From sequence record SRR20825019_49: a stretch of 44,666 bases of DNA; one strand, given 5' to 3'. Shown here in pieces: positions 1,157 to 44,666 of this stretch; position 1 is the stretch's first letter, and each line of letters begins with the position of its first letter. Below the pieces are notes generated by a model. The model worked only from the letters and a program-made list of their open reading frames with translations. It made no database searches and had not been told where the DNA came from. The position numbers and the translations under genes are program-made.

Positions 1157-3994
1157 TTGTCAGAAATAGAATTTATCATTGGCCAACGCTGGGTCAGTAA
1201 CAGCGAAGCTGAGCTGGGATTAGGCATCATCAAGGATAGTAGTGGTCGTAGTATCGAGGTTTTCTTCCCGGCTGTCGCTGAAAGCCGCTTTTATGCGGCG
1301 GATAATGCGCCCTTAAGCCGTGTGGTTTACTCCGAAGGCGAGCAGGTCAAAACCCGCGAACAACTGAGCTTTACCATCTCCGCGGTGCAGCCGCTCAACG
1401 GCTGTGTGATTTATCAGGGCGAGACCAGCCAGGGTGAAGCAGTCAGCTTCCATGAAATGGATCTCGACAGTCGTGTGCATTTCAATCAGCCACAGGATCG
1501 CCTGTTTGCTGGCCAGGTTGATAAAAACAGCCAGTTTGAATTACGGGCCAGGGCACTGGCCTATCAGCATGAATTATTCAGCTCACCGGTATTCGGCCTG
1601 CTTGGCGCTCGGGTTCAACTATTACCGCATCAGTTATACATTGCCAGTCAGGTTTCTCAGCGACATGCACCACGAGTGCTGCTGGCCGATGAGGTGGGTC
1701 TGGGTAAAACCATTGAAGCTGGGCTCATCATGCATCAGAAGATGTTGAGTGGTGAAGTCAAACGCGCGTTGGTCATTGTTCCGGATGCCCTGTTACATCA
1801 ATGGCTGGTCGAAATGCTGCGCCGCTTTAATCTGCATTTCAGCCTGATTGATGTCGAGCGTCACCTCACGCTGGTTGAACTCGACGAAGGTAACCCATTC
1901 GACAGTGCCCAACTGGTCTTATGTGGTCTCAATGATCTGCTGGAAAACCCGGTGATGCAGGAAGACCTGCTGGCTGCACATTGGGACATGCTGATAGTGG
2001 ATGAGGCGCATCATCTTTACTGGGAACCCGGTAACAGCAGTCCGGCCTATCAGTTGATTGAAAAGCTGGCGGCCCGGATTGCCGCGCTGTTGTTACTGAC
2101 CGCCACACCCGAGCAGCTAGGTATCGACAGTCATTTTGCGCGTTTGCGATTGCTGGATCCGGAACGTTTTCATGATCTTGAAGCGTTCAGACAGCAGGAA
2201 GCGGCCTATCAGCCGATTTCGGATCTGATTGATAAACTTGATGTGCTTGAGGCAGCAGATAGCAGCGCCATTGGTAAATTAATACCTGACTTGCAGCCGT
2301 ATCTGTCAGAAACACTGATTACCGGTCTGCAGATTGAGGATGGTTTTGAAGCTTCAAGACAACAAGCCATCAGAGACCTGCTTGATCAACATGGTACCGG
2401 TCGGGTTCTGTTCCGTAACAGCCGTGAGGTAGTCAAGGGCTTTCCCAAGCGGATTCTGCACAGCTACCCGCTTGACTCGGATAGCAGGCTGATGGGGGCT
2501 GAAGCGCTCAGACCGGAAACTGTGCTTGGTCATGACTGGCTGAATGAAGACAGCCGGGTTGTCTGGCTGATTGATTTCCTCAAAGCCCGCCGTGGTGAGA
2601 AAATTCTGCTGATTTGTGCCAGTGCTGATACAGCGACTCAACTGGACAGTTACCTTAGTGTGCATCAAGGCGTTCGTAGTGCGGCTTTCCATGAAAATCT
2701 GAGCCTGATGAACCGTGACCGTGCCGCCGCCTATTTTGCCGAGGAAGAAGACGGCGCACAGTTACTGGTTTGCTCAGAGATCGGTAGTGAAGGGCGCAAT
2801 TTCCAGTTTTGTCACCATCTGGTATTGCTGGATTTACCCCGTCATCCAGATTTACTGGAGCAACGTATCGGCCGACTTGATCGTATTGGTCAGCAGCATG
2901 ATGTTGAAATTCATGTGCCTTATTACCATGGCAGTGCCCAACAAGTGCTGCTTAACTGGTATCACCAGGGCATGAATGCTTTCGAACAGGTGTTTGCCGC
3001 TGGCGATGCGGTCAACAAGACGACGCAGGCGCAGCTGGAAACCTGCCTGAACAGTCCAGATAATACAAAAGCTCTCGCAGCGTTGATTGATTCGACCCGT
3101 GCCACGGCGGAGAAAGCCAGACAAAGTCTGCAGTCGGGTCGTAATCGTCTACTGGAGCGAAACTCCTTTGATGCTGATACAGCCCAACACATCATTGCTG
3201 AACTGGAAGAAGCGACACGCGGCCTGGAACTGGCTGATTTTATGGATGATGTGTTTGATGCTTTCGGCGTAGAACAACAGCCGCATAGTAGTGACAGTGT
3301 GATTCTCGAGCCGGGTAATCATATGGTTTATCCTTTCCCGGAACTGCCGGAAGATGGTCTGACTGCCACTTACCAGCGCCATCGCGCGCTGGGACGGGAA
3401 GATATGGCATTTCTGACCTGGGAACATCCGATGGTGCTGGGTGCCATGGATATGGTGATGAATACCGAAATCGGTAACAGCGCCTTCTGCACACTGGATA
3501 GTGGTGAGTTCAAACCGGGCACACTGCTGCTTGAGGCTATTTTCAAGGTACAGGCTATCGGTACATTGCAGACCTATGTTGATCGTTTTCTGCCTCAGCG
3601 TTATTTCCGCATTGTGGTGGACGCCGAAGGCCGCCAATACCAGGAAATACTACCGGACAGGCAGTTCAATAAGCTGGCCGGACGCATTCCACGGGCGACC
3701 TCGCAGGAATTAATCCGTCATGCCCGTCCCCAGTTGGAGAACCTGATCCAGCAGGCACAGCAAGTATCGACCGAACCGGGAGAAACACTCAGAGGCAAGG
3801 CACTGACAGCCATGCAGCTGGAAATGGCTGCGGAGACTGCCCGCCTGCAAGCCCTGGCAGAAAAGAATCCGGCCATTCGTCAGGATGAAATTGACGTTAT
3901 GGCTACACTGACCAACGATCTGGCGAATACGATACAATCAGCCGAGTTAAGCCTGGATGCTGTCCGGGTCGCGATAGTTACTGAAGCAAATTAA
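1157..3994 (+). CDS. rapA: RNA polymerase-associated Swi2/Snf2 ATPase RapA
   Basis: N-terminal GQRWVS..E.ELGLG, LLADEVGLGKT, DEAHH, SEIGSEGRNFQF, QRIGRLDRIGQ; 945 aa; TTG start. Confidence 0.97.
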   Translation: MSEIEFIIGQRWVSNSEAELGLGIIKDSSGRSIEVFFPAVAESRFYAADNAPLSRVVYSEGEQVKTREQLSFTISAVQPLNGCVIYQGETSQGEAVSFHEMDLDSRVHFNQPQDRLFAGQVDKNSQFELRARALAYQHELFSSPVFGLLGARVQLLPHQLYIASQVSQRHAPRVLLADEVGLGKTIEAGLIMHQKMLSGEVKRALVIVPDALLHQWLVEMLRRFNLHFSLIDVERHLTLVELDEGNPFDSAQLVLCGLNDLLENPVMQEDLLAAHWDMLIVDEAHHLYWEPGNSSPAYQLIEKLAARIAALLLLTATPEQLGIDSHFARLRLLDPERFHDLEAFRQQEAAYQPISDLIDKLDVLEAADSSAIGKLIPDLQPYLSETLITGLQIEDGFEASRQQAIRDLLDQHGTGRVLFRNSREVVKGFPKRILHSYPLDSDSRLMGAEALRPETVLGHDWLNEDSRVVWLIDFLKARRGEKILLICASADTATQLDSYLSVHQGVRSAAFHENLSLMNRDRAAAYFAEEEDGAQLLVCSEIGSEGRNFQFCHHLVLLDLPRHPDLLEQRIGRLDRIGQQHDVEIHVPYYHGSAQQVLLNWYHQGMNAFEQVFAAGDAVNKTTQAQLETCLNSPDNTKALAALIDSTRATAEKARQSLQSGRNRLLERNSFDADTAQHIIAELEEATRGLELADFMDDVFDAFGVEQQPHSSDSVILEPGNHMVYPFPELPEDGLTATYQRHRALGREDMAFLTWEHPMVLGAMDMVMNTEIGNSAFCTLDSGEFKPGTLLLEAIFKVQAIGTLQTYVDRFLPQRYFRIVVDAEGRQYQEILPDRQFNKLAGRIPRATSQELIRHARPQLENLIQQAQQVSTEPGETLRGKALTAMQLEMAAETARLQALAEKNPAIRQDEIDVMATLTNDLANTIQSAELSLDAVRVAIVTEAN

Positions 3995-28269: not shown

Positions 28270-28770
28270 ATGGAACTGTACTCCATAGATAAATTGATGC
28301 ATGAAACCCGGCAACTGGCTGCAAAATATCGTCAGACTACCGGCAGCACCTTACCCGTAACTGGTGAAATTGCGCGCTTTGATGCGGCCAAAGCGCTTAA
28401 CCTGTCTCTGATCGAGGAACCGGGCAGTCCGATTGATGCACTGGGCCGCGACGGGGAGCGGGAGAAGAAACGGATCATCATTAAAGGTCGCGCTATTTTT
28501 GAAAATACCCGATCCAGTCCCAGAATAGGACAACTCAACCCCGACCAGGACTGGGATTTTGTCGTACTTGTATTATTTGATGAGCAGTACGAAGCGGAAG
28601 AAATTTTTGAGGCCAGCCGCGAAGCGATTGCCGCGGCGATGGAAAACAAAGCAGACAGTGCCCGCAAAAAACGCGGCGCGATGTCGATTGCACAGTTTAA
28701 AATCATTGGAAACCGGGTCTGGACCCGTGAAAACGGACTGGAACAGGAAATCTGGGATAACCAGGATTAA
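28270..28770 (+). CDS. Conserved hypothetical protein, possible PD-(D/E)xK-like fold
   Basis: GEIA, IDA, IIIKGR and WD.VVLVL pattern; compact ORF heading the lemA operon. Confidence 0.6.
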   Translation: MELYSIDKLMHETRQLAAKYRQTTGSTLPVTGEIARFDAAKALNLSLIEEPGSPIDALGRDGEREKKRIIIKGRAIFENTRSSPRIGQLNPDQDWDFVVLVLFDEQYEAEEIFEASREAIAAAMENKADSARKKRGAMSIAQFKIIGNRVWTRENGLEQEIWDNQD

Positions 28771-29361: not shown

Positions 29362-30261
29362 ATGCAGGATTTCCTGACTGCAATCGCACTTGAAATCAGG
29401 AAGCTCAGTGAATGGGAGTTCTGGCTGGGCGCTGCACTGGCGGCGGCTGTCGTGGTGTTTTTATTCTGGCGAATGGCTTGCTGGTATCAGCATGCCCGGT
29501 TGATTGAAAATATACCCACCGCCCGTATACGCTCGGCACCGCAGGGTTATATTGAACTGATTGGACAGGCCGGCATGATGGAAGGGCCGGTGATTTTTTC
29601 ACCTTTATCGCAGACCCGCTGCGTCTGGTTTTCCTACAAAATTGAAGAAAAGACGCGTGAATACAATGCTAAAGGCCAGAGTCACAGTCGCTGGCATGTG
29701 GTGAAACAGCAAACCAGCGAAGCCATTTTTCTGCTTGATGATGGTAGCGGCGAGTGCGCCATCGATCCGGATGATGCGAAGGTGATTACCCGTAACAAAC
29801 GAGTCTGGTATAAACATGATGTGGTGCCGCCGCGACGTTACACTGAATGGACAATACTTGAAGGTGAGCCTTTATATGCCATGGGCCTTTTCAAAAGCGT
29901 TGCCAGTGTCGAAGACCAGAGTATTCGCCACCAGGTGAGCCACAAACTGCGCGAGTGGAAACAGGATCCCAATCAGTTGCTCCATCGTTATGACAGTGAC
30001 AAAGATGGCCAGATCAATGAAAAAGAATGGCAACAGGCAAGACAGGATGCGACTGTGGCAGTAAAACGGCAAATCGGGCAACGTGCCAAAATGAAACAAC
30101 TCAGTATCATGCGTAGCAGTCCCCACAAAAACCAGCCGTACATTTTGTCGACCATCCCTGAAACTAAACTGATTGCACGTTATCAACGCTATGCCCTGGC
30201 GGCCATGGCGGGATTTCTTATTCTGGGTACGATGCTCATTTGGGCCATTAATCAGCGTTGA
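29362..30261 (+). CDS. GIDE-domain membrane protein with an EF-hand-like insert
   Basis: TM, PT.RIRSA.QGY.EL.G, SPLS...CVW..Y, F.LDDGSG...IDP; DSDKDGQINEKE loop; C-terminal TM. Confidence 0.75.
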   Translation: MQDFLTAIALEIRKLSEWEFWLGAALAAAVVVFLFWRMACWYQHARLIENIPTARIRSAPQGYIELIGQAGMMEGPVIFSPLSQTRCVWFSYKIEEKTREYNAKGQSHSRWHVVKQQTSEAIFLLDDGSGECAIDPDDAKVITRNKRVWYKHDVVPPRRYTEWTILEGEPLYAMGLFKSVASVEDQSIRHQVSHKLREWKQDPNQLLHRYDSDKDGQINEKEWQQARQDATVAVKRQIGQRAKMKQLSIMRSSPHKNQPYILSTIPETKLIARYQRYALAAMAGFLILGTMLIWAINQR

Positions 30262-30269
30262 ATAAAATC

Positions 30270-32195
30270 ATGCAAGACGATATCGAACAATTATTCGCCG
30301 ATGATGGCCTGCTATCCAGACATGTCGAGCATTACAATGCCCGCAGCCAGCAAATAGAGATGGCAGAGAAAGTCAGCGAGGCACTGACAAACCGGGAAAC
30401 CCTGATTGCCGAAGCCGGTACTGGCACTGGCAAGACCTACGCTTATCTGGCACCGGCGATTTTATCCGGCCAAAAAGTCTTTATCTCAACCGGTACAAAA
30501 AATCTTCAAGATCAATTATTTAAAAAAGATTTACCGAAACTGCGTGAAGTCTTGTCGGTGCCATTAAAAGCCGCTTTATTAAAAGGCCGCAGCAATTATC
30601 TATGCCATTACCGGCTGTCTCTGGCAGAAACAGAGCCTAGCAGTGCAATGAACCAACATGTGCTGCATCAGCTACGCGAATGGTCTGGTAAAACTGACGC
30701 TGGTGATCTAAGCGAAACCGACCTGCTGGAAGAACAATCTATTTTATGGCCCAAAGTCACCTCCACGGTAGACAATTGCCTGGGACAGCAATGTCCTGAC
30801 TACGATCAATGCTTTATTGTCGAGGCAAGGCGTAAAGCGCAGGAAGCCGATATTGTTATCGTCAATCATCACCTATTAATGTCTGATATGGCGCTGAAAG
30901 CCTCGGGGCAGGGTGAAGTCTTGCCGGATGCTGATGCCTTTATTATTGATGAGGCACATCAGTTACCGGCGATTGCCAGTCAGTTTCTGGGCCACCGGAT
31001 CAGCAGTCATCAGTTGCAGGAACTCAGCCGCGACAGTGTGCGGGAGATGGAACTCGAAGCTAATGATATGGATAGCATCCGTCAGGCAGCTGACAAGCTC
31101 GAAAATCGCTTGCACCAACTCAAGCTGACGATGGGGGACAGTGAACAACGATTGCCCTGGCATCAGTGTCTGCAGCGTTTTCCCGAAGTGAGAGAAAAGC
31201 TGGAGGTGTTCATCAGTGCCCTGGAAACCCTGATGGAATCACTGGAAACCGCGAGTGAACGGAGCCGGGGACTGGAACAATGCTTTGAACGCAGTCAGGA
31301 TTTAATTGATCGTCTGTCTATCTTCAATGATAACGATCAAGATGAAAACCTGGTGTTATGGCTGGATATTCGTAGCAATGGATTCGTCATGCATGCCACA
31401 CCGCAGGACGTCAGTCAGCACTTCCAGCAATGGATATCGGACAAGCCCAGTGCCTGGGTATTCACTTCCGCCACGCTGACTGTCGCCGGTAAATTTAATA
31501 ACTTTATTCAGCAGTTGGGGCTGGAAGATCCCATCACCGCCAGTTGGCCGAGTCCATTCGATTATGCCCGGCAAAGCCTTTTGTATATGCCGACGATTCC
31601 GGTTGAGCCATCACACTCGTCTTATAACGAACATATTGCTGAGATTGCACGATCGGTGATTGAACACAGCCGTGGCCGTACATTCCTGCTTTTCACCAGT
31701 TATCGCGCTCTCAATGAAGTGGCTGAGGCATTGCAGGATATGGATTATCCGATCCTGGTTCAGGGGAGCCGGGCTAAAAATCAGCTGTTAGCCGAGTTCA
31801 GAGACCATGGCAATGCGGTATTGCTGGGCACCAATAGCTTCTGGGAAGGGGTCGATGTGCGTGGGGAAGCATTATCCTGCGTATTAATTGATAAGATTCC
31901 GTTTGCTTCACCCGGGGATCCGGTTTTAGAAGCTCGAATTAACCATCTGAGAGAGCGGGGCGGCAATCCGTTCCGATCTATTCAGATACCGTCAGCGGTC
32001 ATTCAGCTGAAACAGGGTATCGGCCGACTGATTCGCGACGAGCACGATTCGGGCGTTCTGGTGTTGTGTGATCCCCGTTTTTTGAGCAAACCTTACGGCA
32101 AAGTATTCATGCGCAGTTTGCCGCCGATGCCCATCACGCAGAAAATAGATGATGTGGCGGCTTTTTTCAGCGAAGAGGCCATTACTGCAGATTAA
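30270..32195 (+). CDS. yoaA: YoaA/DinG family Fe-S ATP-dependent DNA helicase (alternative TTG start 30258)
   Basis: EAGTGTGKT, KGRSNYLC, C.G..C...C cluster, DEAH, SATL, FWEGVDV.G, QG.GRLIR. Confidence 0.92.
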   Translation: MQDDIEQLFADDGLLSRHVEHYNARSQQIEMAEKVSEALTNRETLIAEAGTGTGKTYAYLAPAILSGQKVFISTGTKNLQDQLFKKDLPKLREVLSVPLKAALLKGRSNYLCHYRLSLAETEPSSAMNQHVLHQLREWSGKTDAGDLSETDLLEEQSILWPKVTSTVDNCLGQQCPDYDQCFIVEARRKAQEADIVIVNHHLLMSDMALKASGQGEVLPDADAFIIDEAHQLPAIASQFLGHRISSHQLQELSRDSVREMELEANDMDSIRQAADKLENRLHQLKLTMGDSEQRLPWHQCLQRFPEVREKLEVFISALETLMESLETASERSRGLEQCFERSQDLIDRLSIFNDNDQDENLVLWLDIRSNGFVMHATPQDVSQHFQQWISDKPSAWVFTSATLTVAGKFNNFIQQLGLEDPITASWPSPFDYARQSLLYMPTIPVEPSHSSYNEHIAEIARSVIEHSRGRTFLLFTSYRALNEVAEALQDMDYPILVQGSRAKNQLLAEFRDHGNAVLLGTNSFWEGVDVRGEALSCVLIDKIPFASPGDPVLEARINHLRERGGNPFRSIQIPSAVIQLKQGIGRLIRDEHDSGVLVLCDPRFLSKPYGKVFMRSLPPMPITQKIDDVAAFFSEEAITAD

Positions 32196-35990: not shown

Positions 35991-36977
35991 TTAAGATTTC
36001 AGTTCAGTTGAATTCGTAGTGCTCAGATCAAATGCACTGCTTGCTTCATACTTTCTTATGAAATATTTTTTACCAGATATTGAATCATCCTGAGCTTTTT
36101 TTGCGCTACGAGTCTGTTGATTGTATCCCAACTGGTATGCGGTTTATTAAGCATTAGCTGGATGATATTTTTACGTAACAGTTGGACTGCCGTTATCGAT
36201 AATATATCGTTCAACACAATCCTCATTGGCTGAGAAGATCTCCTCTTCCTCTGCGATCAGTAGCTCAGTCTGAGACACTTTTTTGCTTAGATACTGAAAG
36301 ATTTCATTTAATTTTCCAGGCTCAGGAGCACGGTAATCAGGTTTAGTTACCGTTCTGGTGGGAACTGCAATATAGGCCTTATCTGGTTGCAGCTGTTCTA
36401 AAAAATCTGCCAACCTTATTATGCCTAAGTCTGCTGTATTGACTTTGTCCAATAGCATTGTCACGGTGGTTAAGGTGCCATCAAAATCCTCGGCAAAATT
36501 TATGAGTGAAGACAGAATTCTGTCAAAATCCAGCATCGCAGCAGGTCGGTTGATCTTTTTCCATATTGACTCATCGACCGTGTCAACTTTGAATGATACC
36601 CAGTCAGCCAGCTTAAAGGCTTCTTGAACATCACTTCGCCAGATCAACGAGGCATTGCTGATGACGGCAATCTTAATTTTCAAATCTTTGAGTAACGAGA
36701 TGGTCTCAGTGAGATATTCATCCAGCGTAGGCTCACCAGACGGTACAAAGGTCAGATAATCGATGCTTTCGCCAGCATCATAAATTTCCTGAACCTTGTT
36801 TTTGACACAATCAAAAATGAACTGTGGTTTGTAATAACTTTGTCTGACTGTTTCAGTCCGGCTGGTCTCTCCAACCTGACAGTAAAGGCAAGAATAAGAA
36901 CAATGTTTGGGAGGAATATTACTGATACCCAGACTGCGACCAAGCCGCCTTGAGGGTACGGGGCCAAATGCAATCAT
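35991..36977 (-). pseudogene. Radical SAM protein with frameshifted C-terminus
   Basis: FGPVPSRRLGRSLG, CSYSCLYC, SGEPTL; family-like C-terminus continues in other frames after ~36218 (DILSITAV..) and ~36075 (GKKYFIRK). Confidence 0.8.
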
Positions 36978-38507: not shown

Positions 38508-41030
38508 TTAAAACCGGATCCCCAGGCCCAACCTAAACAGATTGCTTGAGCTATCAAAGCTCATCTCATCTGAATTACTGCCACCGCCGTGAGCTGTTAC
38601 AAAGTCATAGGATTCATAATTCGTGCGGGTGTAGTCCAACCTGATAAAGCTTTGCTTTGTCAGTGGTACTTCGGCACCCAGACCAAACCTGAAACCGTGC
38701 AGACTGTCCTCCCTCTCAATATCGAGATCGGCGTTGTTGCCCTTGCGCCACTGGGTTGTGAACTCGGTTCTCACAGGGCCAGCACGCAGGTACAAAACGC
38801 TACCGCTGTCGAGGATGTAACCGAGTTTAATGGCAGCCCCGATGGTTTCCCCCACTTCAACCGAGAAATCACGTCCACCGCCACCGTTAGTGTTACGTTC
38901 ATGCTCCCAGTCAAGCGATGTCACTTCCCCTTCCAACTCCAGAGCGAGCAGCATTCTCTGCCAGTTAATGGCATAGCCTGCGAAAACGCCGGGTGTAAAG
39001 CCATGATCAGCAAATTCGGCATTAAAATCATAGGGACCCATGCTCTGGTCTCGATGCAAACCGCTCAGATCACTGGCTGTCATCCCGTAGCCCATATGCA
39101 CACCGGCATAGGGGCCGGCGAGTGAATCAGGTTCTACTTTAAGCTGATGCTTGGGCACGGCGCCAAAGCGCCAGCCAATGCCGACATTGAACAGTCCTTC
39201 GTGGATGGCATAGTCTTCATTAAAGCCGGTTGAAACAATATCTTTGTCTTCATAGTTGGTCACGGTGTAATCAAGACGGGCAAACAGTTGCTCAGTCAGA
39301 TCAAATTCAACACCGACGCCAAAGCGAAGACCATTGAGGCTGAAATCATTATCGTAGGCATTTTGTGGTTCATCGTTAAGCTGGTAGAAAGCATCAAACT
39401 CTGTCCTGACTGCACCAATGCGGGCATAGAGAAGACTATTGTTTACCAGTGCCCTGCCCAACCGCACACTGGCACCAACGGACTGTTTTTTCTCCAGGCT
39501 GGATGTCCGGCTGTCTGCTTTGCTCTTACGGTGGTACCAGTCAGCATCGCTGTTTTCGGTTTCCAGCTCCAGACCCAGATACCAGTGATTGCGATTCCAG
39601 CCATAACCTCCGAACAGACCACCGGCAAATCCGGCTTCACCATAGCGGGCATCATCGTTACCACCGTCAGTTCTCTGTTCTGAACTATGTGTTGCCAGTG
39701 TGTTATGGCCCAGCTGTCCACCGACATAGAAGCCATAGGGGCCCGACTCTGCTGCCTTGCCTGAACCCCATACCCGCGACATGCTGGTATCCAATTCATT
39801 CCGAACCGGATACAACCTCGCATTAATGCTCAAAAATATCTGATGGCTGTCGTAATCGAGTGAGTTTTCAAGTCGGTCAAAGTCCACACTGGAATCACGA
39901 TGCAGATAACGATAGTCCCCGGACAGATAGATATGTTGGGTCAGGTCGTACTGCAGGCCGAACCCCACATCAAGATAATCATCCTCACGGCTGATTTCCT
40001 GATAGTCATACTCACTCCAGCTGATATGCGACTTCAGGACCAGATAAGGCAAAAGCCGGTGTTGCAGATTAGTACTGTAGATGGTTTCAACAGCACCGGG
40101 CGAGGCAAACAGCGTGGTCTCAGTAATGTCGCGTTCCACACTGGCCGAAATGAGCGTGCTGGGACCGCTGAGCCAGCGAAGCGAAGCGCCAAAGTCCGGT
40201 TTACTGATATCGCTAAAGGCTGCCTCATCGTATTGTTGCCAAAGGTGCCCAAGATAGACCTCTGATTTCAGCGTCTGACTGATCGTCGATGTAAAGCCTG
40301 CAGCCAGTCGATAGCCATCCGAGTCACGCTCAAACAAATTATCGTCGGGTTTATTTTCATATTCCCTGCGATCATAAATGGCCTGCACAAACGGGCTCAT
40401 GGTGGGATTCTTGTTATGCGTCAATCGCAGACCCAGACCATAAATATCCCTGTCCCGGTCATCATTATTCAATATGCCGGTCTCTGTTGGCACATTATCA
40501 AAATCAAGCTGCTGCCAGGTGCCGCCCAAACGCATGGCAAACTGGCCAAACTGCCTGACGGTGCCTGCATGGGCATCAAACGAACTGTATTCAGTTGGAT
40601 AGCGACCGAAAAAACTGTCGGGTGAGGCACGTGATTCATGGTCTTCACTGTAGCTGAGGCCGGCAAAAAGATTGTCTTTCTCAGACAGGTCATAACGGCC
40701 TGAAGTACCGAATCTGAGATCATCATAATCTTCAGTGTCGTAATCCTGGTATCGACCTATATCCGCGTTGGCAAAAAATTCGAGTTCATGTTTTTGCCAG
40801 TCGGAACTGATGTTCAGTGACGGGGAAAAAATGAGAATTTGATCGGCTTGCTTGTCAGTGCGGGTGGCGAAGATATTGTCATCATAAACACCGGTCAAAC
40901 CCAGCTCTGGTGTGACGACAAAACTGCCTGCCTGAAATCCACTTTTGGTAGGCGTCTGTTCTGGATCATCTGCCAGCGCGATACTTTGCTGACACAAAAC
41001 AACTAATGGCAATATTATGACAAATTTCAT
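38508..41030 (-). CDS. Outer-membrane beta-barrel protein (BBP2/DUF2320-like) fused to two Omp25/OmpA-TM-like barrels
   Basis: Signal peptide, YDDNIF motif, ~400-aa barrel, then two repeats G.Y.G...G...G.G.RF; terminal Phe. Confidence 0.8.
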   Translation of the reverse strand: MKFVIILPLVVLCQQSIALADDPEQTPTKSGFQAGSFVVTPELGLTGVYDDNIFATRTDKQADQILIFSPSLNISSDWQKHELEFFANADIGRYQDYDTEDYDDLRFGTSGRYDLSEKDNLFAGLSYSEDHESRASPDSFFGRYPTEYSSFDAHAGTVRQFGQFAMRLGGTWQQLDFDNVPTETGILNNDDRDRDIYGLGLRLTHNKNPTMSPFVQAIYDRREYENKPDDNLFERDSDGYRLAAGFTSTISQTLKSEVYLGHLWQQYDEAAFSDISKPDFGASLRWLSGPSTLISASVERDITETTLFASPGAVETIYSTNLQHRLLPYLVLKSHISWSEYDYQEISREDDYLDVGFGLQYDLTQHIYLSGDYRYLHRDSSVDFDRLENSLDYDSHQIFLSINARLYPVRNELDTSMSRVWGSGKAAESGPYGFYVGGQLGHNTLATHSSEQRTDGGNDDARYGEAGFAGGLFGGYGWNRNHWYLGLELETENSDADWYHRKSKADSRTSSLEKKQSVGASVRLGRALVNNSLLYARIGAVRTEFDAFYQLNDEPQNAYDNDFSLNGLRFGVGVEFDLTEQLFARLDYTVTNYEDKDIVSTGFNEDYAIHEGLFNVGIGWRFGAVPKHQLKVEPDSLAGPYAGVHMGYGMTASDLSGLHRDQSMGPYDFNAEFADHGFTPGVFAGYAINWQRMLLALELEGEVTSLDWEHERNTNGGGGRDFSVEVGETIGAAIKLGYILDSGSVLYLRAGPVRTEFTTQWRKGNNADLDIEREDSLHGFRFGLGAEVPLTKQSFIRLDYTRTNYESYDFVTAHGGGSNSDEMSFDSSSNLFRLGLGIRF

Positions 41031-41176
41031 CCCTAGCTACTTCCTTCCTGTCCACTTGTGTCACGTTCTTAATCTTGCAGCAGCATTTCTCTCTAACCTA
41101 CTTAATAAGTTAACTGATTAACTCAAGGACAGTTCGTTTTTTAGCGTTAGTATTGATCTCGATCAGATTCTCTATT

Positions 41177-41563
41177 TCACTCTTGCTCATCGCCCCAGAA
41201 TTGCCACCATTTCCTGCGGTTTTCTCGTGATTGTTGCCCCTGTTCTGAGCCCTTGCCCAGTTCCTTTTGTTCCTGCCCGGTTTTCATCTCACGCTGTTGA
41301 TTCATGCCCTGGCTTTCATCCTGATGCTCACGCAGTCTTTCACGATCCTGCTCTCTCATCTGCTCCTGTTGTCTGTCCCCCTGTTGTTGGCCGCGATGTT
41401 CTTCCTTGTGCTTTTGTTCCTGCTTCCTTTCCTGCTCCCGTATTTGCTCAGCCTGCTCACTCTTTTGCTGGCCCTTGCCTGATCCTTTACCAGGGTCGGC
41501 CATGCCGTGAAGCGGCCAAATGACCGCGCTTGTTACTAATATGCTGATAAATAGTTTTTTCAT
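41177..41563 (-). CDS. Secreted low-complexity Q/E/R-rich protein with C-terminal RKWWQFW motif
   Basis: ATG 41563 with AGGAG RBS; signal peptide MKKLFISILVTSAVIWPLHGMA; start overlaps RT stop (TAATG). Confidence 0.8.
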   Translation of the reverse strand: MKKLFISILVTSAVIWPLHGMADPGKGSGKGQQKSEQAEQIREQERKQEQKHKEEHRGQQQGDRQQEQMREQDRERLREHQDESQGMNQQREMKTGQEQKELGKGSEQGQQSRENRRKWWQFWGDEQE

Positions 41564-42687
41564 TATGGTTCTCCTGTTACTTGTCGGATTTCCAGCGGCC
41601 AACGGACACCGGCTAACTGATGGCGGTAGGATTTTTCCAGATCTGGATCTATATCATTGACATAGGACAGCAAACCGTCGAGGTACTTTTTGAAGCCGGC
41701 AGTGGAATGAAAACCACGTTTTTGAGCGTGCTTCTCAGGACCAATGTCCGCATGGTTAAGATGGAAAATATGTTGACGGATTTTATTGCGAACCTGCTTT
41801 TGCAGGCGGGGTTTTTCACCGTCGACTAAGAGCCCGAGGACAATTTTTCTGGCACCGGGGGAAACGATGACAGTTTTGCTCATATTGGGCGACTGACCAT
41901 GGGATCGCATCAACCGGTAAATCTGATGGATAAATGCCTTGGCCCGATCTCGTGAAAAATCCCTTAGCGGCGTTGAAAAATAGAGATCGTCTGCATAACG
42001 GCTGTAAGTTAATTGTTCCTCTGCCGCCAGACACAAAGCTTTCCTGTCGAAATTCACCATGACCAGATTGGATAAGGCTGGACTGGTCGGTGCGCCTTGT
42101 GGCAGGTGACCCATTCGCTGGCTCTGGTATTGGCCGATAACGCCATAATGACTGGCAATCTGCCACCGATGTCGACGCCGGAAAGCAGTCAGACTGCCCA
42201 ACCGGGTGCACAGTCTTGCAAGTTCAAATGCAATCAACGGCTGGTAACCCAGGCTTCGGAAAACCCGATAGACATCAATCTCGGAAATCGCACTGAAAAA
42301 ATTATACAAATCGAGCTTTATCAACCAGCGGCAACCACAATGAACACTGGCAGCATTCTGGATGGATTTTCCTTTCTGAAATGCGTAACTCACCGGGCTT
42401 GGCTGAATCAGAGTGAGGATTTGCCGGTAAACCCACTGCTGTACTCTAAGTAAATTCTCATCAGGAATGGCGATGATACGAAAGCCGCCTGACTTTTTCC
42501 TGATCCTGAATGTTTTGTAGGGTTCTGGCTGTTGTCTGGCAATAAATTGTCTGAGAATGGCATAGTCAATCTCAGTCATATCAGCCAGTTGTTTAAGACT
42601 GTTAATGACTGGAAAATGAGATCCGGCACTTGCTGGTGCTGGTTGCAAATCCTGAATGGGTGATAACTGAGAGTGCTTTCGACTCAT
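41563..42687 (-). CDS. Retron-type reverse transcriptase
   Basis: Y..FRI.KKSGG.R.I..P, region X NAASVH, KLDL.NFF, LPQGAPTSP.LSN, YSRYADD, region Y VLG; 374 aa with no maturase or endonuclease domain. Confidence 0.9.
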   Translation of the reverse strand: MSRKHSQLSPIQDLQPAPASAGSHFPVINSLKQLADMTEIDYAILRQFIARQQPEPYKTFRIRKKSGGFRIIAIPDENLLRVQQWVYRQILTLIQPSPVSYAFQKGKSIQNAASVHCGCRWLIKLDLYNFFSAISEIDVYRVFRSLGYQPLIAFELARLCTRLGSLTAFRRRHRWQIASHYGVIGQYQSQRMGHLPQGAPTSPALSNLVMVNFDRKALCLAAEEQLTYSRYADDLYFSTPLRDFSRDRAKAFIHQIYRLMRSHGQSPNMSKTVIVSPGARKIVLGLLVDGEKPRLQKQVRNKIRQHIFHLNHADIGPEKHAQKRGFHSTAGFKKYLDGLLSYVNDIDPDLEKSYRHQLAGVRWPLEIRQVTGEP

Positions 42688-42798
42688 CTACTCTGACCCA
42701 GAGGGGATGGTGTCGTGGCAAGCCAAGAAGGTAACGCCGCAGGCGCAGACGCGACACGCTTAATTACCAGCAAGGGCTTGTCCGAGAAGCTGGAGTAG
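42688..42798 (-). ncRNA. Candidate retron msr-msd RNA
   Basis: Terminal inverted repeat CTACTC/GAGTAG abutting the RT ATG; two short 5' hairpins; GTGTCG/CGACAC-closed branched stem (42710-42757). Confidence 0.6.
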
Positions 42799-42823
42799 TC
42801 TCCGCTCCCACTTTTCTCAACTG

Positions 42824-42854
42824 AAAAAAGCGTCGTTAGCAATCTAACGTGCAC
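42824..42854 (-). terminator. Putative terminator between the stress operon and the retron
   Basis: Minus strand CGTTAG-attg-CTAACG-acgc-TTTTTT. Confidence 0.5.
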
Positions 42855-42914
42855 TAGATAAGTCATCCGGCACTCCCAGTTAATCATCGATAAAAAATAT
42901 GAATGCTATGTCCA

Positions 42915-43361
42915 TCAATGCATAAACTCGCGCTGGAGATAACCCCGCAAATGCGCTTCAATCTCTTGATTTTCCATGCCTGCGAGGTCCTTGTTTTTTT
43001 CCAGAATGATATTTTTTCTAATCATGGCCGGCATTAATTTACGCAACTCGCCCAAAAAATCCGGTGATGCTATAACGACCAGGTTACCAAGACTCTTAAC
43101 CTCATAGAGATCCCGCAAGAAGGAAATGACCAGGGACGCAAACGACGCCACTTCATGATGTTTATGCGTGTCCGCTGCCTGATAACTGTGACTGCCACCT
43201 CCTTGAGACATAATTCTGCCCGGCAGATCGGAGGTCAGTTCCTGCTCCAGGCTATGCCCGCTGGGATTCTTCATCTGTTTGATTTCTGACAGCGCCGCAT
43301 GCCGGCTCTCAGCACTAAAGATTTTGGCCTCTGCCGCGTTGGCCACTAATACAGTCATCAT
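42915..43361 (-). CDS. Host attachment protein (AtsE / baeRF12-like)
   Basis: VLVAN...AKIF, L.SD.PGR, FA, LVVIASP.FLG.LR, KDL; likely ATG 43361. Confidence 0.85.
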   Translation of the reverse strand: MMTVLVANAAEAKIFSAESRHAALSEIKQMKNPSGHSLEQELTSDLPGRIMSQGGGSHSYQAADTHKHHEVASFASLVISFLRDLYEVKSLGNLVVIASPDFLGELRKLMPAMIRKNIILEKNKDLAGMENQEIEAHLRGYLQREFMH

Positions 43362-43387
43362 CGTCGTATCTCTCAAAAAATGGTCTT

Positions 43388-43690
43388 TTATTCAACGATC
43401 AGTAATCGTTCACGCAATGTGTTTATTTCATCCAGCAAGTCCAACGCCAGTGCTGCACCCGCGATATTTACTTCAAGATCCCGGCATAAGCGCGCGGCTT
43501 TACGGACTTTGTGTATGCACTCAGCCTCATACAAAGCTTCATGTTCCGTTATAGTCATTGCCGACGGGGCAATCACACCGTAATCGAGCATTTCTGCCAG
43601 CTTTGTTGCTGGCAGTTCACAGCAGTCACAAATCTGTGTGAACGATATGAGGTGGCTATGAAGGTGATATACGTCGGTATTCGATTGCAA
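43388..43690 (-). CDS. cbpM: Chaperone modulator CbpM (MerR-like)
   Basis: EM.DYGVI.P, RKAARL.RDLEVN..G.ALALDLLDEI..LR; TTG start after AGGAG. Confidence 0.85.
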   Translation of the reverse strand: MQSNTDVYHLHSHLISFTQICDCCELPATKLAEMLDYGVIAPSAMTITEHEALYEAECIHKVRKAARLCRDLEVNIAGAALALDLLDEINTLRERLLIVE

Positions 43691-43723
43691 TGAACCTGAT
43701 CTCCTGCGTCTTCAGCTTCTGCG

Positions 43724-44155
43724 TTATTTATCAACCTTGATTTCTACAGGGTTTGCTTTGGCCTTGGATTTTTTGGGAACGGTCAGTTCAAGCACACCAT
43801 CTGTGGTTTTAGCCTTTATTTTTTCCAGGTTAGCTGCCTCAGGTAACGTAAAACGACGCATGAAACTGCCACTGAAACGTTCAATGCGCTTGTAATTATC
43901 AGATTGCTCGCGTTTCTCTGACTCTCTTTCACCTTTGATAGTCAGTACATCATTCTCAACAGTGACTTTGATGTCATCAGCCTTAACACCGGGTAAATCG
44001 GCTTTGATAACGAACTTGTCATCTTCATCGCTAATATCAACAGCCGGAGACCATTCCTCACTATCGAAATTAGCTGTGGTTCTACTGGGAAAGAAATTAC
44101 TGAGTTCTCGTTGTAATTCGTTCATCAAACTCAATGGTCTGTACTGGGTTGTCAT
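43724..44155 (-). CDS. Hsp20/alpha-crystallin small heat shock protein
   Basis: WSPAVDI, ADLPGV, LTIKGER, ER.SGSF.RRF.LP, DGVL.LT.PK. Confidence 0.95.
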   Translation of the reverse strand: MTTQYRPLSLMNELQRELSNFFPSRTTANFDSEEWSPAVDISDEDDKFVIKADLPGVKADDIKVTVENDVLTIKGERESEKREQSDNYKRIERFSGSFMRRFTLPEAANLEKIKAKTTDGVLELTVPKKSKAKANPVEIKVDK

Positions 44156-44183
44156 ATCAATATCCTCTGTTTATGCAATTGGG

Positions 44184-44372
44184 TTAGTCCATTGATTGGT
44201 TGATGATTTGCTCTGCTTCCAACCAGTCTTCCAACTCGTGTTCGCTTTCAAAACCGCGTTTTTCGGCGAGGTAATAAGCTGCTTCTTCAATCAACCTGTG
44301 GCGTTCTGAAGTGAATGGTTGAGCGAGTTCATTCATTGTCTCAGGCGGGCTATCGTTCTTTGCTTTTGCCAT
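44184..44372 (-). CDS. DUF2934 domain protein
   Basis: R...I.EAAYYLAEKRGF......DWL.AE; GGAG RBS. Confidence 0.88.
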   Translation of the reverse strand: MAKAKNDSPPETMNELAQPFTSERHRLIEEAAYYLAEKRGFESEHELEDWLEAEQIINQSMD

Positions 44373-44418
44373 GATCTATTTCTCCAACGTTGAGAGGAAC
44401 GTTCCAGATAAAAACTAG

Positions 44419-44433
44419 GCAAAAGGCATGCCC
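44419..44433 (-). promoter_or_regulatory. Putative sigma54 (-24/-12) promoter
   Basis: Minus strand GGGCATG-CCTT-TTGC: exact GG-N10-GC spacing, about 46 nt upstream of the DUF2934 start. Confidence 0.65.
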
Positions 44434-44495
44434 ACATTTATCTTGATGAAATATATGGGGTTTTCATGTCACTTTGGAGATATTGATATGCCGGG

Positions 44496-44585
44496 TGTCA
44501 ACTAAAGTAGACAGCATATTGGGGAGATTCAGAGGATAAGGCCGTTACAGGGGGGGGATTGTGTGATTGTCTACAAAAGTAGACA
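44496..44585. promoter_or_regulatory. Two palindromic TGTC(T/A)AC-N4-GTAGACA sites (putative enhancer-binding-protein UAS)
   Basis: TGTCAAC-TAAA-GTAGACA at 44496-44513 and perfect TGTCTAC-AAAA-GTAGACA at 44568-44585, 72 bp apart. Confidence 0.7.
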
Positions 44586-44666
44586 GGCATCTATTTTTTC
44601 ATACACGACAGCTAGGACTAGTTGATCTTTCATATTCACCACTGCTGGAGGCTATTTTTGTGTCCG

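Follow-up and report, generated by a model that had tools for sequence, protein, structure and literature searches.

The 44,666-nucleotide stretch SRR20825019_49 (hereafter the window, meaning the whole stretch of DNA that was analysed) carries on its minus strand a retron core, made up of a reverse transcriptase (RT) gene along with the non-coding RNA (ncRNA) directly upstream of it, and no recognisable effector gene. Retrons are usually viewed as three-part toxin-antitoxin defence systems. We consider it likely, at a probability of roughly 0.7, that the core in the window is an active ncRNA-RT pair which would still make msDNA, short for multicopy single-stranded DNA, and which has no toxin in cis, that is, a type III-A retron derivative without an effector. 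The phosphoribosyltransferase (PRTase) that defines type III-A is gone from the Methylophaga clade represented by the window and the two related genomes G001 and G032. The parts of the core are as follows.

41563..42687, minus strand: retron RT of the type III-A lineage, 374 amino acids, catalytic YADD intact (PADLOC RT_III-A, Pfam RVT_1)
42664..42882, minus strand: ncRNA of the retron (msr-msd), delimited by the a1/a2 outer inverted repeat, with its 3' end within RT codons 4-8
42870..42882, minus strand: outer arm a1 (TAACTGGGAGTGC), a 13-nt inverted repeat with a2
42664..42676, minus strand: outer arm a2 (GCACTCTCAGTTA), within the beginning of the RT coding sequence
42855..42865, minus strand: 5' half of the inner arm (TGACTTATCTA), 11 nt, with an AUCUA/UAGAU core
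42680..42690, minus strand: 3' half of the inner arm (TAGATGAGTCG), which holds the RT start codon ATG at 42687-42685

An intact retron RT with YADD, AASVH and VLG motifs had already been reported for this stretch by an earlier reading of the letters alone (the original prediction), and our analysis bears this out. The protein matched the PADLOC model RT_III-A (PDLC02944) at 5.3e-157 and Pfam RVT_1 at 1.3e-18; with the NCBIfam model retron_St85_RT it scored 205.5 bits, under the model cut-off of 235. When 30 family sequences were aligned, the residues of YADD (Y231, D233, D234), NAASVH (A112, A113, H116) and VLG (L284, G285, L286) fell on invariant or nearly invariant columns, and the window RT retained all of the invariant columns. 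Compared with the family, it is ~16 residues shorter in the N-terminal region, although homology persists in the first codons, on which a2 imposes a constraint. The RT_III-A profile (597 positions) has a long C-terminal part that the RTs of G001 and G032 are without. At G001:C20:19123-20400 and G032:C2:353832-355187 the profile aligns on to positions 449-450, crossing 7-9 stop codons. The PDLC02944 match that runs into the small-protein gene behind the RT was set aside as a low-complexity artefact, because the small protein by itself matches no PADLOC model.

Of 8,000 candidates scored in a protein search with the RT, 7,099 had E <= 0.001, headed by four Methylophaga-type sequences at 92, 79, 76 and 70% identity; all further matches were at <= 56%, and most of these were 382-392 amino acids long. 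At E <= 1e-20, RT matches occurred in 3 of 61 relatives of G001, namely in G001 (92%), in G032 (75%) and, at a distant 31%, in G046. A class-level sample of 401 genomes contained a single match at E <= 1e-60, in G001 itself, and a phylum-level sample of the same size contained six at E <= 1e-50. Scanning of the genome contigs recovered one close RT locus only (L001, in G001). In a quick maximum-likelihood tree of 48 RTs, the window, G001, G032 and the proteins P0002 and P0004 formed one clade on a long branch, with 100% support in the Shimodaira-Hasegawa-like approximate likelihood ratio test (SH-aLRT). This Methylophaga clade was nested within a clade of 99% SH-aLRT support that holds all PRTase-linked RTs, and its immediate sisters were P0005-P0012, at 51-56% identity. 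The resemblance to PRTase-linked RTs that the original prediction had stated is also seen in the tree.

A candidate ncRNA upstream of the RT had been predicted as well. By its repeats and its fold this ncRNA is real and precisely bounded by a1 and a2, but it extends beyond position 42798, where the element had been thought to end, to 42882. The outer 13-nt inverted repeat covers 219 nt from end to end, and a 227-nt segment containing it folded with a minimum free energy of -96.2 kcal/mol, compared with a mean of -68.1 (standard deviation 4.8) for shuffled sequences (z = -5.9); none of the 200 shuffles folded as stably as the native sequence. The comparison with G032, whose RT protein is 76% identical to that of the window, delimited the same element: similarity opens 3 nt 5' of a1 and closes just past a2, with diverging flanks on both sides. 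Between a1 and a2 there are ~25 differences in 219 nt (~89% identity), against 76.5% identity for the whole shared region, and the substitutions that fall in predicted stems mostly preserve pairing, chiefly via G-U pairs.

The same architecture recurred in the family. Each of 14 PRTase-linked relatives had an outer arm, spanning 225-259 nt, whose a2 falls among the first codons of the RT (-3 to +26 of the start); this was the longest repeat detected in 12 of them and ranked lower in L044 and L009. An alignment of eight sequences showed the outer arm (13 pairs) and the inner-arm core AUCUA/UAGAU to be kept with compensatory changes, those in the core occurring in three of the eight. No consensus structure was obtained from the family-wide alignment of 14 sequences; the narrower set of eight gave one. 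There was no Rfam match at E <= 1 in positions 40000-44666, which is weak evidence since the coverage of III-A ncRNAs by Rfam is unchecked. The first msr hairpin (CGTTAGATTGCTAACG, 42834-42849 on the minus strand) has a T-run behind it and receives a terminator-like score. In the predicted fold this T-run is itself paired in the next hairpin.

An open reading frame (ORF) of 59-92 amino acids, with the core start MTYLVHV, overlaps the ncRNA on the same strand at all three Methylophaga loci:

42684-42887 of the window, minus strand: ncRNA-overlapping ORF
10234-10413 of L006 (G032), minus strand: ncRNA-overlapping ORF
7726-8004 of L001 (G001), plus strand: ncRNA-overlapping ORF

A GGGAG motif lies 6 nt ahead of its ATG. 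The ratio of non-synonymous to synonymous differences per site (pN/pS) was 0.31, calculated from only 19 differences that are distributed 4/4/11 over the codon positions, and a 1-nt indel alters the C-terminus in G032. The pS of 0.26 is far under the divergence that neighbouring genes show at synonymous sites, as would fit a constraint at the RNA level; the ORF is probably a by-product of that constraint.

Selection was also apparent on the RT. The ratio of non-synonymous to synonymous substitution rates (dN/dS) was 0.19 relative to G001 and 0.13 relative to G032, with a dS of ~1.2 between window and G032, and these values lie within the range of the neighbouring baeRF12, HSP20, MerR_2 and small-protein genes. 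The ORF is intact in all three genomes. By these measures the RT is under purifying selection, and together with the conservation of the ncRNA this argues against a decaying relic.

We compared the upstream context of the core with that of related RTs, which was readable at 27 loci with RTs of 33-46% identity. At every one of these, PRTase_III-A lies directly upstream of ncRNA and RT on the same strand. The PADLOC model for this effector (PDLC02933) matched in all four genome loci tested (L007, L008, L009, L011) and PADLOC found the gene in 11 of 12 metagenome loci; at the twelfth (L041), and at L045, a custom hidden Markov model (HMM) built from 12 PRTases of relative loci detected C-terminal PRTase fragments at contig ends. 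The gene was likewise upstream in 8/8 viral-contig loci and in 2/2 plasmid loci. This count was made without L010, which has a similar but unscored upstream ORF, and without L039, L046, L047 and L056, where too little upstream sequence was present. With the PRTase upstream of the ncRNA in relatives, the place of the missing effector is upstream of a1 and not at the 3' end of the RT, where the original prediction had put a possible deletion junction.

No such gene was detected in the window. Among the 44 window ORFs scanned, none matched a retron effector model in PADLOC, in agreement with the earlier statement that no known effector is present, and the PRTase HMM had no match in six-frame pieces of at least 30 amino acids from the window, L001 and L006. 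Genome-wide, PDLC02933 had no match in G001 and only a weak one (E = 0.005) in G032. A winged-helix partner was not recognised in cis or in the related genomes searched, although no dedicated winged-helix model was applied; MerR_2 is a helix-turn-helix protein, but it is a member of an HSP20 operon that also exists without a retron. The reading of the core as an orphan left after effector loss, which the original prediction favoured, thus largely holds, in that the RT is nested in a PRTase-linked clade of which all readable relatives carry the PRTase. It missed in two details, the position of the lost effector and the state of the core, which, under purifying selection and with a conserved ncRNA, is not decaying.

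The Shigella sonnei IncF plasmid locus L198 (12480-15136 of the record) holds a complete PRTase-ncRNA-RT arrangement whose RT is 45.7% identical to that of the window; this retron is on a conjugative plasmid and adjoins IS26 and mph(A). At the metagenome loci L049 (7037-11071) and L050 (7248-8216), other defence genes (DrmA of DISARM; PDC-S05) come directly after the canonical III-A retron. These are defence-island contexts, in contrast to the stress-operon context in Methylophaga.

The genes that surround the core in the window are listed below.

44372-44184, minus strand: ORF of 62 amino acids upstream of HSP20
43724..44155, minus strand: HSP20 small heat-shock protein (Pfam HSP20 at 2.4e-28)
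43388..43690, minus strand: CbpM-like MerR_2 protein (Pfam MerR_2 at 1.2e-19; NCBIfam CbpM at 9e-11, below cut-off)
42915..43361, minus strand: standalone baeRF12 / Host_attach protein (Pfam PF10116 at 7e-31, PF18856 at 1.5e-25)
41584..41586, minus strand: CGA codon (stop loss) where G001 has the RT stop TGA; adds seven codons and creates a TAATG overlap
41177..41563, minus strand: small Q/E-rich protein ending in WWQFW, 128 amino acids, signal-peptide-like N-terminus; flanking host gene
41030-38508, minus strand: outer-membrane (OM) barrel, 840 amino acids (BBP2_2 at 2.9e-88, plus OMP_b-brl)

Read along the minus strand, the order is therefore the 62-residue ORF, HSP20, MerR_2, baeRF12, a gap of 228 nt, the RT, the small protein and the OM barrel; a chaperone operon and an OM barrel as neighbours had been correctly foreseen. 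The last protein gene of the stress operon, baeRF12, occupies the position that the PRTase has in canonical relatives. An operon consisting of a sigma54 activator, an ORF of 87 amino acids, HSP20, MerR_2 and a baeRF12 that is 46% identical to that of the window was present in G033, a genome without RT_III-A. The stress operon is thus an independent unit, to whose 3' end the retron core is attached in the window clade. A sigma-70 promoter scan of the minus strand found no site in the interval from baeRF12 to a1, and none ahead of the small gene. The sigma-54 consensus gave 26 matches against 33 expected by chance, none of them upstream of the HSP20 operon in the window.

The borders of this arrangement could be located by comparison with close relatives. 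G027 and G005 have an ABC-2 permease followed by a spacer of 134 bp, the small gene and the OM barrel, and in G001 the 134-bp spacer is replaced by a block of 4,951 bp, which contains a sigma54-type activator, the 62-residue ORF, HSP20, MerR_2, baeRF12, the ncRNA and the RT. Homology of the window to G027 (92-96%) and to G005 (80%) spans the OM barrel and the small gene and ends exactly at 41563; this position, the ATG of the small gene, is the edge of the accessory block. The window itself ends inside the block, before the sigma54 activator. The block is also present in G032, where the small gene comes next, with other genes beyond and no OM barrel. Beside its activator (L006, 13831-13905) lies a stretch of 78 nt that shares 77% identity with the end (3') of the ABC-2 permease gene in G001. 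This permease remnant suggests an old shared arrangement that eroded later, in which the permease-block junction would predate the split of these lineages. No relic of the block was present in the 134 bp between permease and small gene in G027, the alignment score there being equal to that of shuffled sequence. The sigma54-dependent activator is a single ORF of 461 amino acids in G032 (L006, 12163-13548) and is split into ORFs of 126 and 320 amino acids in G001 (L001, 4459-5798).

The original prediction had given most weight to the other end of the RT gene, where the RT appeared to be coupled to a secreted protein and envelope genes. The minus strand at this junction reads ...ACAGGAGAACCATAATG, and the overlap as such was read correctly: the RT stop TAA (41565-41563) shares one base with the small-gene ATG (41563-41561), and an AGGAG motif is contained in the last RT codons. 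The overlap occurs in the window only. The distance from the RT stop to the small-gene ATG is 20 nt in G001 and 26 nt in G032, and the RT ends in WPLET* in G001 and in WPLEIRQVTGEP* in the window. Judged from these alignments, the TAATG overlap is recent and due to one strain-specific substitution in a stop codon (TGA to CGA).

The small WWQFW protein matched no family above cut-off in PADLOC, Pfam or NCBIfam, and its best scores in the ESM Atlas, at 0.79-0.80, were uninformative; that it is putatively secreted follows from the signal-peptide-like N-terminus alone. It had matches in 13 of the 61 relatives of G001, with full-length orthologues in G001 (95%), G027 (94%), G032 (71%), G005 (66%) and G030 (55%). 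RT_III-A had no match in the genomes G027, G005, G030 and G033. As the same locus exists in G027 and G005 without an RT, the small protein and the OM barrel are, on this comparative evidence, flanking host genes rather than parts of the retron, and the proposed link between the RT and envelope functions is not borne out.

If the core is an active effector-less derivative, as we favour, the RT would reverse-transcribe the msd part of the ncRNA into msDNA, with priming from a G immediately 3' of a1. Read-through from the stress operon would transcribe both ncRNA and RT, by analogy with canonical III-A retrons, whose effector gene overlaps at its end with the ncRNA. Lacking a toxin in cis, the element would be unable to act alone as a classical tripartite abortive-infection system, and its long retention would mean that RT-msDNA has some selected role, either alone or with a partner encoded elsewhere. 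Several points weigh against this picture. The data are assembled contigs of DNA-type runs, and both msDNA production and transcription are predicted. The survey of PRTase contexts covered RTs of 33-46% identity, more distant than the immediate sister RTs P0005-P0012, and the tree comes from a quick search. The PRTase may have been lost in place, or the core may have been captured without it. The search for an effector in trans was made in the relatives G001 and G032, perhaps incomplete genomes, and not in that of the window organism. Coding of a small protein by the overlapping ORF may also contribute to the conservation of the ncRNA.

Among the other explanations, we hold an effector encoded in trans, elsewhere in the genome, to be unlikely, though less so than the remaining ones. 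It would account for purifying selection on RT and ncRNA when there is no toxin in cis, and a trans partner has been raised for other orphan retron branches in a passage of Mestre et al. 2020 (PMC7736814). Against it stand the results for PRTase_III-A, absent from G001 and weak in G032, in a genome-wide search that covered the PRTase only, and the statement in the same section of PMC7736814 that most hosts of orphan retrons are without homologues of known retron partners. Somewhat more doubtful is that baeRF12, alone or with the HSP20 and CbpM-like genes, took over from the PRTase as the effector under control of RT-msDNA, which would amount to a retron-gated translation arrest. This is close to one option of the original prediction, in which the baeRF12-like protein was a new retron partner, and no positive evidence for it emerged. 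Its attraction is one of position, baeRF12 being located exactly where the canonical effector would be, on the same strand and with its stop ~30 nt before a1; furthermore, baeRF12 homologues are present in 31 of the 61 relatives and exceed 70% identity only in the two RT-bearing genomes. However, G033 has the sigma54-activator/HSP20/MerR_2/baeRF12 operon with no RT_III-A anywhere in the genome, the window, G001 and G032 share the linkage as a single inherited arrangement and not as a set of independent events, and the 30 nt that separate baeRF12 from a1 show no conservation between the window and G032. If it were true, this would be a new retron type, forming the last cistron of a heat-shock-type operon, in which RT-msDNA gates a blocker of the ribosomal A-site, and retron sensing would be linked to translational shutdown or hibernation under stress or infection.

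That the core is a functionless remnant heading for decay appears improbable to us. A remnant would explain why there is no canonical effector, why the close relatives G027 and G005 can do without the block, and why the RT C-terminus differs among strains; but dN/dS values of 0.13-0.19 over a dS of ~1.2 with the ORF intact, the retention of all invariant family residues, and an ncRNA that is more conserved than the surrounding coding DNA and whose stem changes mostly keep pairing, are not what is expected of one. We regard it as very improbable indeed that the WWQFW protein or the OM barrel is a retron effector translationally coupled to the RT. The TAATG overlap with its AGGAG motif pointed in that direction, and the small gene does adjoin the RT downstream in all three RT-bearing genomes. 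Yet the overlap is a feature of the window alone, small-protein orthologues of 94% and 66% identity sit at the same locus without an RT, the OM barrel is not beside the RT in G032, and the signal-peptide-like N-terminus of the small protein is at odds with a presumably cytoplasmic RT.

The remaining PADLOC matches in the window were to generic helicases, weakly to SduA/DUF4263, weakly to PDC-M43B, to a methyl-directed restriction-enzyme type and weakly to pVip. The pVip match (9e-14) concerns a radical SAM protein at 36171-36977 on the minus strand, which reached 45.8 bits against a cut-off of 180 with NCBIfam viperin_w_prok and is probably a generic radical SAM enzyme. On the plus strand, a DinG-type helicase (30258-32195) matched the typeIV_DinG model at 1e-153, a small enzyme (28270-28770) matched mREase_II at 1e-25, and an SNF2-type helicase (1157-3994) also matched a PADLOC model. 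By their annotation, the DinG-type helicase, the mREase_II-like enzyme and the SNF2-type helicase look like housekeeping genes rather than a defence island.

Compared with known systems, the core is closest to the type III-A retrons, with an RT that belongs to the RT_III-A family and is nested among PRTase-linked RTs. A passage of PMC12746101 describes for Retron-Eco11 (type III-A3) an outer arm of 14 bp, an inner arm of 11 bp and an ncRNA that overlaps the 3' end of the effector gene and the 5' end of the RT gene. The window ncRNA is similarly upstream of the RT on the same strand, with an inner arm that spans the RT start codon, and with a2 among the first codons of the RT gene. It differs from type III-A in that there is no PRTase-like effector in cis or in the related genomes searched, in that the effector position is filled by baeRF12, a gene of the stress operon, and in the shortened N-terminal region of the RT.

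A second comparison is with orphan retrons, for which a section of PMC7736814 names the Retron-Eco5/Ec107-like branch of clade 2, and clade 11; for clade2_Ec107like, an excerpt of PMC13712802 gives recurrent accessory modules as absent. As these sources present them, such branches share with the window an RT and an ncRNA without a specific associated protein, and they raise the same question of a partner in trans or another role. The window RT, however, scores 9e-55 with the PADLOC model RT_Ec107-like as opposed to 5e-157 with RT_III-A, the loss in the window is visibly secondary, in a clade where all examined relatives keep the PRTase, and the core is embedded in a heat-shock-type operon. A third likeness, to baeRF-1/Balon, concerns the neighbouring gene only: baeRF12 is placed in the bacterial aeRF1-like clade (PF18856) and stands beside Hsp20, which part of PMC10901736 names as a common neighbour of Balon genes. 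However, baeRF12 is a single domain of 148-153 amino acids, compared with the three domains and at least 300 amino acids of Balon.

Because orphan retron branches have already been described, effector-less retrons are known as a phenomenon. What is new here is the documented secondary loss in a strictly PRTase-linked clade, the long retention under selection, and the attachment to a heat-shock-type operon beside an aeRF1-like protein. A term search of the open-access literature, supplementary tables excluded, retrieved no account of baeRF12 or HSP20 being linked to a retron.

The locus also carries a caution for the reading of gene neighbourhoods, since one altered stop codon where an accessory block ends can give rise to a translational overlap and adjacency to envelope genes. 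For the biology of retrons, it offers a natural setting in which to ask what role RT-msDNA has without a toxin, a question left over from Mestre et al. 2020, in that purifying selection has retained RT and template RNA in Methylophaga lineages that approach saturation at synonymous sites. As a compact ncRNA-RT pair with precise boundaries from a marine methylotroph, it may moreover be of use in msDNA-based tools.

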